Below are positions 15,746 through 53,853 of a stretch of DNA of 64,000 nucleotides, one piece after another. A program made the position numbers and the translations under genes. A model generated the notes under the pieces. That model was not told the origin of the DNA. It saw nothing but the letters and a program-made list of their open reading frames with translations, and did not search any database. Origin of the DNA: Octopus vulgaris (lineage: Eukaryota); the NCBI GenBank assembly GCA_951406725.2, contig OX597832.1, positions 54,622,001 to 54,686,000 on the forward strand, written 5' to 3'. Position 1 is the first letter of the stretch. Every line of letters begins with the position of its first letter.

Positions 15746-16044
15746 ACATATATATTCTCTCTCTCTTTCTCTCTCTCTCTCTCTCTCTCTCTCTCTCTCT
15801 CTCTCTCTCTCTCTCTCTCTCTCTCTCTCTCTCTCTCTCTCTCTCTCTCTCTCTCTCTATATATATATATATATATATATATATATATATATATGTATAA
15901 AATAGTGTACATTTAAACACAAGAGAAACTACCTTTAACAGGTAATTTTACACGCTAGAAGAAGTAGTCGAAACGACTAAAACCACATATAAGAGCAATT
16001 TCGAAGGGAATGAAAAATGAAAACTTTTACCTTGTTATTTTTTT

Positions 16045-16118
16045 ACGGTTATACCTAGATTTCGAATTCTTTTAGCAAATAAAATAATTTGCTAGGCGAA
16101 ATTCTCGTCAGTAACCGT
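16045..16118 (-). ncRNA. type-I hammerhead ribozyme motif
   Basis: ACGGTTA-CTGACGA-GAATT(..TAGCAAAT/ATTTGCTA..)AATTC-GAAA-TCTAGG-TA-TAACCGT: intact core, perfect 7-bp stem I, GUA cleavage triplet. Confidence 0.8.
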
Positions 16119-16197
16119 GCCATAACATTAACATATAATTTAGAGACAAATAACACGTGTTATATACATATATATATATATATATATATATATATAT

Positions 16198-16424
16198 ACA
16201 CGAAGAGGTGTCGAAAAGTTCCTGGCTTTGGGTAAAATAATATGCAGGAAAATCAATTATGATTTTTATCGACCATATTCCCCTCTCAGATCCACACACT
16301 TATTGCAGTGGTCCTTCAGTTCTCGTAAACCCTTTGTAAAAGAACTTAGACGGTTGGACCTCCAACCAGGCCTTTCGTGAGTCCCTTAAAGCCAGGAACT
16401 TTTCAGCCCCCCGCTCTCTTCGTA
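16198..16424 (-). mobile_element. mariner-derived MITE, copy 2
   Basis: TIRs GAAAAGTTCCTGGCTTT / AAAGCCAGGAACTTTTC; minus strand retains a transposase C-terminus (KLKDHCNKCVDLRGEY). Confidence 0.75.
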
Positions 16425-19000
16425 GTGACTGTGATTAAGTAAACACTGTTCAAACATAACCCAACGGTCTTTGCAACAGGCAACCGTTCATTCGCTATAA
16501 GTTGTAGGTTACGATAATAGCTACGCACTAGTATCTTCAAACTGTTTTATATTTTCAGGAAAATTGTATGGAATTTATTTTTTAATATTTCAACTTTTCT
16601 TATAACGAGAAATTAATAGAAACAAAATACTTATCTCCACATTTTACCGGATTTGCCATAAATATCATTTAGTTTTAAATAGAATTTATGATAAGCAACT
16701 CTTTAAAAAAGCTACTTCCTTTCCTAATAAATTTGACATAAAATTATTTTGATGCCCATTAGAGCGCTATTTCGATTGACAAAACCGATCTCCCACTGTT
16801 CTCGTATTTTCTCATTTAAAAGAGAATGTCACGAGAGTATTATAAGTCCTGTTGAGATCAATCTATAGATTAGTTATGGCGAGGTGCATCTCTCAGTACA
16901 GCACTGATAAATACATCATTTTTCTCCCCCTAATTTATTGAAGATGAAAACACCGTTTATTCATTTATTACAAATTGAATTAGCTTGCGTTCGGCACAGT
17001 TATCTTCTACAGAGATACTGTAAACAGCTTAATTTTTTTCTTTTTAAATTACTTTATTGTATTTCTATGTTCTCAATACAAAACACCGCAGCGCAGCGTG
17101 CAAAAGTGTTTGTACATATACTTGTTTGCTTAGCCTCTTCATCTAAATCTAACCGTTACTCTTCATATTTTCTCTGCTGCCTATTACTGGACAATGTCTA
17201 CACACATGTACAATGTAGACAACGGCTAGTGTATCTATTTCGTAAGTAGACGGATCAATATTTCAACTTCCTGTACTCTCTTCTCAAACTTTTCATTTCC
17301 TTGATGAAGAAGAAGATGTCGTAATTGCCGGCAGTCAATAAATGAGAACGGGAAATCTATTTATTCTCCATCGTTATTTCGTTCGGCTCGGCTCTTCCAT
17401 CGGCCGCTTCGACACTCGTACACGAATAACAAATAGCAATATTTGCCGGTGTATTTTCGTTCTGACGTCGAGCTGGTGCGGGAAGAGGAGGAGGAGGAGG
17501 AGCAGTAACAATTTTCGTGTATTGATGTAAATCAAAATTAATTTCACTCAAGTTACCGTTGGAAACACAGCATTAGTTTATAATGCTTCGGGCAGTATGG
17601 TTCTATCCTGTCTTTGGTTTCAAAGGAAAACGAGTCTAACGCTGTGCGTGTATTGATAGATTTGAGGCGGACGTTGAAAGCAAGGAACATAGAGGAGATT
17701 AAAGAAAAATCTAAAAGATTTTTATTAAATTACAATTCCGACTTCCAGTTATATATACGTAAATATATATAGACGTATGTGTGTGAGTGTCTCCATGTGT
17801 GCATAGATATACAAATACATACATACATACATATATAAATACATACATACATACATACATACATACATACATACATACATAAATACATACATACATACAT
17901 ACATACATACATACATACATACATACATACATACATATACATATATACATATATATATGTATATATATGAGTGTGTGTGTATGTATGTATACATATAAAC
18001 GTATACACACATATACATATAGATATATATATATATATATATACATGCAATATATATATATATATGCATATATATTTCTACGTTTGCATATGTATAATAT
18101 GAGGTACGCATGTGTGTGTATGAGTGTATACACACAGACACACACACATACACACACACACACACACTCACACACAAACATATATATGAATATATATATA
18201 TATATACATACGTACATGAATTTATATATTCATATATACGTATATTTGAGCTGCTATATATGCATATGTGCATGCATAATACGCATATGTGTATACATGT
18301 ATATGCATGTATGCATGTACACATTTGTATGCATATAGGCATGTATGTATATACATGTATTTATGTATATATGTAAGTATGTATGTATATACAGATATAT
18401 ATGTGTGTATACATACACATACATATATATGTATATATGTATGCATATATATGTATATGTATATATTCACACACACATATATATATATATATATGTAAAT
18501 ATACACATATATGTATATATATATATATGTAAATATACACATATATGTATATATATATATATATGTAAATATACACATATATGTATATATATATATGCAT
18601 ATATATATATGTATATATGTATGTATATATATATATATGTGTATATATGTATATATATGTGTGTGTGTATATGTATATATATATATATATATATATATGT
18701 GTATATATATATATATATATATATATATATATATATATATATATATATGCAAACACACACACACACACGCACATACACACACAGATCTTTGTAAATGAAA
18801 AATATCACATTGAGTTTATAACAGCTCATCTTTCGCTTAGTAAAATAGTTTCTTTATGATGTTCCACTTAACAAATACAACTCTGTTTATTTCAACTTCA
18901 TCTATGAACCACACAAACCATTCATCTTCTGTGCTTTTTACTCCTTAAACCTGATCTAATTATCAATGCATTTTCATATTTGATATTAGCTTCAAATTAA

Positions 19001-20190
19001 GGCGGTGAGCTGACAGAAATGATTAGCACGCCGGGCGAAATGATTAGCGATGTTTCGTCTGCCGCTACGTTCTGAGTTCAAATTCCGCCGAGGTCGACTT
19101 TGCCTTTCATCCTTTCAGGGTCGATTAAATAAGTACCAGTTTCGCACTGGGGTCGATATAATCGACTTAATCCGTTTGTCTATCCTTGTTTGTCCTCTCT
19201 GTGTTTAGCCCCTTGTAGGTAGTAAAGAAATAGGTATTTCGTCTGTCGCTACGTTTTGAGTTCAAATTCCGCCGAAATCGACTTTACCTTTCATCCTTTC
19301 GGGGTCAATTAAATAAGTACCAGTTACGCACTGAGGTCGATATAATCGACTTAATCCGTTTGTCTGTCCTTGTTTGTCCTCTCTGTGTTTAGCCCCTTGT
19401 GGGTAGTAAAGAAATAGGTATTTCGTCTGCCGTTGCGTTCTGAGTTCAAATTCCGCCGAGGTCGACTTTGCCTTTCATCCTTTCGGGGTCGATTAAATAA
19501 GTACCAGTTACGTACTGAGGTCGATATAATCGACTTAATCCGTTTGTTTGTCCTCTCTGTGTTTAGCCCTTTGTGGGTAGTAAAGAAATAGGTATTTCGT
19601 TTGGCTTTAGGTTTTGAGTTCAAATTCCGCCGGGGTCGACTTTGCCTTTCAAAGTACCAGTTGCGTACTGGGGTCAATCTAATCGACTGGGCTAACTCTA
19701 ACCGTCCTCCAAAATTTCGGGCATTGTGCCTAGAGTAGAAAAAAGATATTTAAACAGTTAAACAGGCTTTATTCACCATTCACAACATATTTTATCAAAC
19801 CTCCATATCGCCGTATTAATGATATCTTCTAGATACATCTGACGTCTTAGCACGCCGGCCAAATTGCTTAGCGATATTTCGTTCTGAATTCAAATTCCGC
19901 TGAGGTTGACTTTGCCTTTCATCCTTTCGGGGTCGATTAAATAAGTACCAGTTGCGCACTGGAATTGATATATAACCGACTTAATCTGTTTGTCTGTCCT
20001 TGTTTGTCCTCTCTGTGTTTAGCCCATTGTGGGTAGCAAAGAAATAGGTATTTCGTCTGTCTTTACTTTCTGAGTTCAAATTCCGCCGGGGTCGATAAAT
20101 TAAGTAGCAGTTGCATACTGGGGTCGATGTAATCGACTGGCCCCCTCCCCAAACATTTCAGGCCTTGTGCCAAAGAGTAGAAAAGAATAT
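19001..20190 (+). mobile_element. composite SINE A array bounded by a 16-bp TSD
   Basis: Head plus units restarting at 19233, 19417 and 19591; ~100-bp non-SINE segment; second dimer; ATATTAGCTTCAAATT at 18983-18998 and 20187-20202. Confidence 0.85.
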
Positions 20191-20202
20191 TAGCTTCAAA
20201 TT

Positions 20203-52411: not shown

Positions 52412-52617
52412 AGACTGATAGTAAATGTTTTTATTTTTCATTCCTTTCGAAGTTTTATCCCTAATAGCGGTTTGAAATTTAACTGTTCTGTCTAGCATGC
52501 AAGGAGTCCTATGATGGATGCCACTTATGTGTTTAAATGTACATTGTATTTATATGTATGTATGTGTGTGTGTGTGTTCGTGTGTGCGTGCGTATAAGTA
52601 TAGATATATATATGTTC

Positions 52618-52750
52618 AGGGGTTACACAAAATAATGGAAACACCTTAAAATTTCAAACAAATTTATTTCAATATGGGATAGGACCGCCTTTGGCAGTAA
52701 TTACACCTTGAATTCTACGAGGTATGGCCTCGTACAAAGTTCGAATTGTT
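52618..52750 (-). mobile_element. 3' end and TIR of the same Tc1-like family as 30534-31720
   Basis: Reverse complement matches 31597-31720; TIR CAGGGGTTACACAAAATAATGGAAACACC. Confidence 0.85.
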
Positions 52751-52933
52751 CCGGCAAGTTGCAATAAACAATTAAAATATTGTCATCGGAAATGAAAGAT
52801 AAAAACATACACTAACAAATTAGAAGCACCAGGAAGTGACCGCACGAATGAGACTGCATAATGAAGGGTGGATATTTACTTTAAGATGTACATATGACAT
52901 ATATATATATATATATATATATATATATTTCAT

Positions 52934-53528
52934 AGGCGCAGGAATGGCCGTATGGTAAGTAGCTTGCATCTCAACCACATGGCTACGGGTTCAGTTCTAC
53001 ACTCTTTCTCTCTCACAATCTATCTATCTATCTATCTATCTCTGTGTATGTATGTGTGTGTGTGTGTGTGTGGCTGTGTGGTAAGAAGTTTGCCTCCCAA
53101 TCTCATGGTTCTGGGTTCAGTCCCTCTACGTGGCACCTTGCGCAAGTGTCTTCTACTTTAGCCTCAAGCCGACCAAAGCCTTGTGAGTGGATTTAGTAGA
53201 CGGAAACGGAAAGAAGCCCGTCATACATACACACACACACACATATATATATATATATGTGTGTGTGTGTGTGTGTGTGTGTGTGTGTGTGTGTGTGTAT
53301 GTATATATGTATGTACGTATGAATGTTTGTGTGTCTGTGCTTGTCTCCCATCATCGCTTGACAACCGATATTCGTGTGTTTACATTCCCGTAAGCTAGCG
53401 GTTCGGCAAAAGTGACCGATAGCATGGCAGGCTTACGAAGAATAAGTCCTGGGATCGATTTTTTTTCGACTAAAAGACGGTGCTCCAGCATAGCCGCAGT
53501 CAAATGACCGAAACAGGCAAGAGAATAA
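52934..53528 (+). mobile_element. SINE family B head fragment (52934-52996) and near full copy (53070-53528)
   Basis: Match to family B. Confidence 0.85.
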
Positions 53529-53595
53529 ATGAACACACACACACACACACACACACACACACACACACACACACACATATATATATATATATATA

Positions 53596-53853
53596 TTTCG
53601 TTTTGGGATTTGGTTTGCAAGTTTCTTTATATGATTTCGTGTGTTGAAGCATATTCTGTTGTGTCTGGGGAGAGTCATTTTCTTCTAGTGCCTTATACTT
53701 AACATACTCACCGGTAAAATTTCCACTTATTTCTTTTTTTTTTTTTTTTTTCTAAAATTTTCGTTGCGTCTTGCAACCTTTTCAATAGTCTTGACTCTTT
53801 TAGAAAATAAAAAATAAGAAAAAAGTGGAAATTTTACCGGTGGGTGTGTTAAA
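53596..53853. mobile_element. head-to-head pair of a Penelope-like terminal element; hammerhead motif at 53752-53788 (minus)
   Basis: 53800-53853 is an inverted copy of part of 53699-53755; minus strand CTA-TTGAAAA-G-GTTGC-AAGAC-GCAAC-GAAA-AT-TT-TAG. Confidence 0.65.

Follow-up and report, generated by a model that had tools for sequence, protein, structure and literature searches.

What kind of element leaves behind a series of short repeats that carry hammerhead ribozyme motifs and no open reading frame (ORF)? The question is raised by 64,000 nucleotides (nt) of Octopus vulgaris DNA (NCBI GenBank assembly GCA_951406725.2, contig OX597832.1, positions 54,622,001 to 54,686,000 of the forward strand), referred to here as the window and numbered from its first letter. 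From the letters of this stretch, a preliminary description had reported six hammerhead motifs, assigned them to about five ORF-less families, and suggested that they are non-autonomous RNAs of Penelope-derived or retrozyme-like type. The reading favored here, with a probability of roughly 80%, is that the five families are what 5′-truncated insertion left of endonuclease-bearing Penelope-like retroelements (PLEs), namely stubs of their 3′ termini. The Penelope origin is likely from the architecture of the insertions and is drawn from that architecture rather than from a linked ORF, because the reverse transcriptase (RT) ORFs of the window belong to another class and no PLE ORF is found in it.

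The hammerhead motifs and the five repeat families are confirmed features of the window. All six motifs can be read as type-I hammerheads at the coordinates first given, although the core CUGANGA originally given for all of them is present in only four. Three belong to the first family, designated A. The motif at 16045-16118(-) has the core CUGACGA, a stem I of 7 base pairs (bp), a stem II of 6 bp extended by an upper 8-bp hairpin, and a self-complementary stem III (H17 at 16052; folding z score -2.9). The motif at 52135-52201(-) has the core CUGAAGA at 52198-52192, a stem I of 3 bp, a stem II of 4 bp, and the palindromic stem III ACCAUGGU (H17 at 52138; z -3.4). Its counterpart at 52343-52411(+) retains a canonical core and a 3-bp stem II, with stems II and III partly decayed (H17 at 52407). 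The family B motif at 26496-26538(-) combines the core CUGAUGA with a bulged G after A9 and 5 bp in each of stems I and II (H17 at 26501; z -3.1). The two remaining motifs depart from the canonical core: that of family D at 53752-53788(-) reads UUGAAAA, which is the U3-A8 variant (z -1.4), and the hammerhead-like motif of family C at 48127-48164(-) reads CUGUCGA, with U in place of A6 (H17 at 48132; z +0.2).

Across the six motifs, stem I spans 3-7 bp and stem II 3-6 bp. Stem III is fully self-complementary in four (one with G-U pairs), at 6 of 8 positions in 52343, and at 4 of 6 in 26496. An unpaired base follows A9 in families B, C, and D but not in A, and G10.1-C11.1 occurs in four of the six. 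Predicted folds of 16045, 26496, and 52135 form the expected stems (z about -3), while families C and D and the decayed copies (for example, 21045 and 37192) have no clear folding advantage over shuffled sequence. Cofolding of whole monomers yielded a minimum-energy structure other than the dimeric hammerhead fold, a result that was not used.

The number of motifs exceeds that in shuffled sequence. A canonical-core descriptor returned three matches; 150 local dinucleotide shuffles averaged 0.007, with a maximum of one, and none reached three. Two wider descriptors, both picked after the motifs were known, gave four matches versus 0.073 when U3-A8 was allowed, and five versus 0.087 when position 6 was left free (150 shuffles each; none above one for the latter). 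The reversed sequence gave no match. Since the shuffle-tested descriptor required a stem II of at least 4 bp, it missed 52343-52411(+), which a separate descriptor recovered. The narrowest form of the latter found only two motifs, a number also reached by 2 of 100 shuffles. Lastly, a scored scan produced six matches at a score of at least 8, versus 0.16 in 25 shuffles, and five of these were named motifs. The match at 34413-34470(+) was rejected as a chance occurrence, as its first stem I pair is broken, its z is +0.25, and it lies inside a decayed coding stretch of a long interspersed nuclear element (LINE).

Comparisons by blastn and nhmmer sort the copies into five families, as had been estimated, with a total of 2561 nt or 4% of the window. 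Six-frame translation revealed no conserved ORF in any of them. Family A consists of a solo copy of a second subfamily at 15893-16160(-), with (TA)n at both ends, and a head-to-head inverted pair at 51895-52555 (outer end approximate), whose arms at 51986-52253 and 52292-52559 are 88% complementary and of which the left has the longer 3′ tail. Family B is represented by a copy at 26345-26560(-), which contains the hammerhead 26496-26538, and by a decayed inverted pair at 37127-37392, in which the core of the left arm is broken and the right arm begins in loop II. Family C is a single solo copy at 48027-48206(-) flanked by (TA)n runs. Family D comprises an inverted pair at 53597-53862, with a left arm that bears the hammerhead 53752-53788(-) and 158 nt of 3′ sequence and a right arm of 62 nt that starts at about the cut position, plus a decayed solo copy at 21000-21244(+) that is 85-86% identical to 53590-53792 and damaged in stem II and GAAA. 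Family E is known from two inverted pairs: at 24469-24667, both arms end within the hammerhead (3′ parts of 48 and 113 nt), while at 25140-25388 the cores are decayed and stems I-III are still discernible (3′ parts of 112 and 45 nt). The degenerate copies noted earlier near 21047, 25240, and 37190 belong by homology to families D, E, and B, respectively, but they score below 6 as hammerheads.

Several other sequences lie close to these copies. Directly upstream of the decayed family D hammerhead is a second core-like stretch (21000-21046, +), unscored since its stems are unpaired. A 59-nt piece at 26627-26685(+), 78% like the family D 3′ tail, stands head-to-head with the family B copy and contains no hammerhead. 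A 169-nt tandem of 2.8 copies, 97% alike, at 37960-38434(+) shows weak similarity to the family B 3′ tail and has no hammerhead core. Near family C, a 185-nt non-repetitive block between (TA)n runs (48465-48650) occurs once in the window and is possibly another stub family; no hammerhead was found in it. Direct repeats of 200 nt (76%) at 15534-15733 and 16207-16405 bracket the family A solo copy and resemble parts of another small element.

The architecture of the insertions is what points to PLEs. Inverted head-to-head pairs account for five of nine insertions, with the 5′ ends together and the 3′ ends facing outward. Within a family the 3′ ends are constant, the usual end lying 105-160 nt past H17, and each of the four assessable pairs is unequal, with a longer 3′ tail on one of its arms. 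The two independent family E pairs agree in their 3′ end points: in each, one arm stops 45-48 nt and the other 112-113 nt past H17. The corresponding points are 62 and 158-160 nt in family D, and 148-159 and roughly 200-240 nt in family A. In contrast to the constant 3′ ends, the 5′ ends are variable and differ within families A, D, and E: some fall upstream of stem I or at its edge, others within loop II or stem III, or close to the cut position. Such variable ends, together with family A copies that extend upstream, are compatible with truncation of longer elements. Of 18 unit ends, 11 have a run of (TA)3 or longer no more than 15 nt away, compared with 11% of the window, a proportion that is inflated, as some ends were set by eye at (TA)n.

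These traits can be compared with published accounts of PLEs and retrozymes. Insertions of endonuclease-positive (EN+) PLEs are described as having an inverted truncated copy, a tail at one end only, and a (TA)n bias (Craig et al. 2021, PMC8557442). The tail has been attributed to a pair of RT start sites that lie 111-118 nt inside an ORF starting at stem II (Frangieh et al. 2024, PMC11167929). Like EN+ PLEs of the Penelope/Poseidon, Neptune, and Nematis groups, the window insertions have a hammerhead near the 3′ end, an inverted truncated copy at the 5′ side, a one-sided tail, AT-rich or (TA)n targets, and a distance of roughly 100-160 nt from the cut to the 3′ end.

The motifs themselves also resemble the minimal hammerhead ribozymes (min-HHRs) of metazoan PLEs. 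Cervera and de la Pena 2014 (PMC4209133) reported that min-HHRs form many families per genome and occur as solo motifs from truncated PLEs and as opposite-strand pairs 100-700 bp apart. They have a bulge after A9, G10.1-C11.1, a U3-A8 variant, and a palindromic stem III through which they would act as dimers. The window shares with them the type-I topology, a short stem I, a tiny palindromic stem III, the bulge after A9 (in families B, C, and D), the U3-A8 variant (in family D), the many sequence families, the predominance of solo motifs, and the spacing of opposite-strand pairs. The earlier identification of minimal type-I hammerheads of Penelope type is backed by sequence, by shuffles, and by the published descriptor.

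Sequencing runs offer further evidence on family A. Words from this family occur in 20 of 24 listed sequencing runs with five organism labels, none of which holds half of the words or more. At 80% likeness, contigs matched in four runs (three labels) numbered 5490, 5737, 2734, and 521, counts that include an adjacent Tc1-type end. Family A is therefore high-copy in runs of three organism labels, these being matched contigs and not a count of copies. At 52254, 25 contigs of run X1 and 12 of run X6 extend beyond the right arm in the upstream direction, and loose contig ends show the second subfamily, with a different palindrome. When the two subfamilies are compared at 12 core-proximal pairs, six have changed on both sides and still pair, one has changed on one side, four are unchanged, and one is broken. 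The broken pair, the fourth of stem I (52134), is repaired by the majority letters of four runs, as are the upper hairpin (52181) and the stem III palindrome (52404). No variant was present in the hammerhead core among the 40 of 106 variant rows listed. Identity between the subfamilies is 97% in the upper stem II region and 74% downstream. Given the pairs changed on both sides, the repaired pairs, and the conserved upper stem II, the hammerhead fold of family A appears to have been selected for in the source elements. Two other observations from the runs were left unused. An approximately five-fold fall in summed depth upstream of the cut position fits subfamily divergence as well as truncation, and depth is not copy number. 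A junction in a single contig of run X2 (52186 to 52421), which starts at the cut position, is equally explained by deletion between direct copies of the stem I strand.

A mechanism modeled on PMC11167929 could produce these structures. A PLE protein would nick both strands of AT-rich DNA, and reverse transcription would start a short way 3′ of the hammerhead, at either of two internal sites, with uncleaved RNA as the main template. The one-sided tail would then be the stretch between the two RT start sites. An early stop of synthesis would leave a stub that keeps the ribozyme and little else, and priming on both target strands, a step proposed by the present analysis, could generate the head-to-head inverted pair. 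Selection on the hammerhead would operate only in autonomous source elements. There, two same-strand copies in partial tandem may pair with each other through the palindromic stem III, giving a dimer that cleaves, probably with help from protein. The dimeric cleavage originally ascribed to the palindromic stem III would thus apply to such tandem source elements, but not to the solo and opposite-strand copies of the window. Inverted pairs are unable to dimerize in cis, as each transcript has one motif only, and read-through RNA of an inverted pair is predicted to form a long duplex (-371 kcal/mol) that buries the hammerhead. The window copies, being solo or opposite-strand and in several cases having broken cores, are likely inactive passengers.

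A number of observations weigh against an origin from PLEs. No Penelope-type RT was found in the window or linked to any family, an absence that truncated copies would explain, and a Pfam search of 401 stop-free, non-repetitive stretches of at least 45 amino acids (aa) found no GIY-YIG domain, although shorter or frameshifted remnants would escape it. To this extent the preliminary description, which saw neither ORF, was correct; it left unmentioned two RT ORFs of another class. No ORF begins at stem II in any family, unlike in the Anolis Poseidon element, and the one-sided tails measure ~60-97 nt versus the 30-40 bp in print. The window contains no direct-repeat pseudo-long terminal repeat (pLTR) or partial tandem, features that would be seen in full-length copies. 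No match to families A, C, or D turned up when viral contigs, metagenome contigs, and prokaryote genomes were scanned by pattern. Family A differs from min-HHRs in its lack of a bulge after A9, its A-U at 10.1-11.1 in the 52-kb copies, its 8-nt palindrome, and its long stem II with the conserved upper hairpin. Moreover, the covariation described above comes from one pairwise comparison in family A, the only family for which run contigs were compared, and core conservation across that family is partly visible in the variant rows listed.

An alternative is that the families are independent, fixed-length, non-autonomous units, similar to short interspersed nuclear elements (SINEs) or solo retrozymes without long terminal repeats (non-LTR retrozymes), which are transcribed, self-cleave, perhaps circularize, and are mobilized in trans by PLE proteins. 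Such units would account for the lack of an ORF link in any family, and for the solo copies A16045 and C48127, both of which begin ~40-45 nt before stem I and are complete, with (TA)n runs on either side. Solo monomers of PLE-derived retrozymes have also been reported (preprint 10.64898/2026.07.22.740005), and non-LTR retrozymes resemble the window families in being short, ORF-less, low in G+C, type-I, and PLE-related. Family A is also present in run X18, whose RNA nature is a guess, so that its presence is uninformative on expression; among the runs listed for family A, none is recorded as RNA. However, retrozymes are defined as tandems (Cervera and de la Pena 2020, PMC7229834; Li, Clavereau and Pollet 2026 preprint), with head-to-tail units that each contain a mostly canonical hammerhead, and minimal hammerheads are assigned to PLEs (PMC7229834). 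The window copies are instead solo or head-to-head, minimal, and often broken, and no hammerhead-unit tandem array is found among 108 rows of Tandem Repeats Finder output. The differing 5′ ends within families and the upstream extension of other A copies also conflict with a fixed length, and no pile-up of contig starts is listed for family A, though contigs cannot reveal RNA ends. The preliminary description's reading as non-autonomous or retrozyme-like RNAs is consequently not supported, and independent fixed-length units seem unlikely.

Also unlikely is a scheme in which dispersed, non-tandem ribozyme RNAs mobilized by PLEs would be cleaved in vivo, with the products inserting anew, so that the 5′ junctions found in the genome would be a record of hammerhead action. 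As such a scheme would have it, the family D pair has a right arm that begins at about the cut position, and the X2 junction likewise begins there. According to PMC11167929, insertion in vitro proceeds without a need for cleavage, and no Anolis RNA reads start at the cut site.

The window also contains a different class of retroelement, and it is conceivable, but very improbable, that the stubs derive from that class, e.g., from an R2/R4-type LINE with RT and endonuclease. The only RT ORFs of the window, 57658-60105 and 62175-63185, are of R2/R4 type rather than PLE, and decayed pieces of such elements are numerous. The former ORF has R2 proteins as its best solved-structure matches (E 4e-26), shows, by its sequence motifs, a zinc-knuckle and restriction-like endonuclease region at its C-terminal end, and has homologues at 60-67% identity. 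It presumably belongs to the R4/Dong group. Against a LINE source, no family has nucleotide similarity to the LINE, and LINE pieces do not lie next to the hammerheads. R2-type elements carry ribozymes like that of hepatitis delta virus (HDV) (PMC6765202), and head-to-head pairs with a one-sided tail are known from PLEs. Finally, chance matches in AT-rich, palindrome-rich repeat DNA might be suspected from the short motifs that fold no better than shuffles (C and D) and from the apparent false positive at 34413(+), but are extremely improbable given that none of 150 shuffles reached the observed count under any of three descriptors and that family A shows compensatory changes and majority-letter repair.

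The hammerhead families lie in a window that is crowded with other repeats. It has about 36% G+C, is microsatellite-dense (18% masked), and is rich in SINE-like repeats and decayed transposons. The RT ORF of 815 aa described above forms part of a nearly intact non-LTR retrotransposon at 57243-60105(+), with the upstream part in a different frame and long flanks of (AAT)n and (ACT)n type. By tblastn, related RT-endonuclease LINEs are also present as decayed copies or 3′ stubs at 61800-64000(+), 53983-56232(+), 35114-36610(-), and 34389-34580(+). SINE-like units form tandems with a period of 184 (2-3 copies) or 233, 91-95% alike, at 647-1195, 14276-14843, 19053-19651, and 43218-43574, in addition to many solo copies. 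We take these SINE families to resemble those of octopus, a likeness on which the argument does not depend. A broken Tc1-type transposase lies at 30722-31718, and a matching 123-nt terminal piece at 52628-52750 is very high-copy in the runs compared. At 6688-6849(+), a fragment of a Pif1 helicase 2B domain (E 6e-11) is probably a Helitron remnant.

The preliminary description had suggested that standard repeat annotation could miss these elements. Rfam does miss the three motifs queried (A16045, B, and C), with no hammerhead family at E <= 10, and among the 150 of 337 window matches listed, it gives no hammerhead and solely microsatellite-driven microRNA (miRNA) matches. Penelope fragments, however, are routinely annotated: 190 Penelope-like families make up 6.83% of the O. 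vulgaris genome, in an account (PMC13282606) whose available part does not mention hammerheads. For comparison, 235 Rfam hammerheads are given for the giant squid in PMC6962438. Families A-E are undescribed in the accessible literature on hammerheads in octopus and cephalopods, on A6U, and on the six motifs, although Lunse et al. (cited in PMC6765202) and its supplement may contain them. The five family motifs are absent from the supplement of Craig et al., and that of family A from the O. vulgaris supplement (PMC13282606).

Nearly every feature of these putative stubs is already described in Cervera and de la Pena 2014 (PMC4209133), and the departures are small: the tails are longer, family A has a long stem II, and the single C copy is changed at position 6. 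Should U at position 6 prove to be family-wide in C, it would constitute a new core variant. Stubs of this sort are ordinary genomic debris known from many animals, and the families add to a class numbering thousands per genome. Their only use is as material: truncated copies are numerous, their 3′ ends fall at two fixed points while their 5′ ends vary, and one could therefore ask across the genome whether insertion begins where the ribozyme cuts. If reinsertion of cleavage products were true after all, the presence of at least five families per 64 kb would let breakpoint counts probe the in vivo role of PLE hammerheads.

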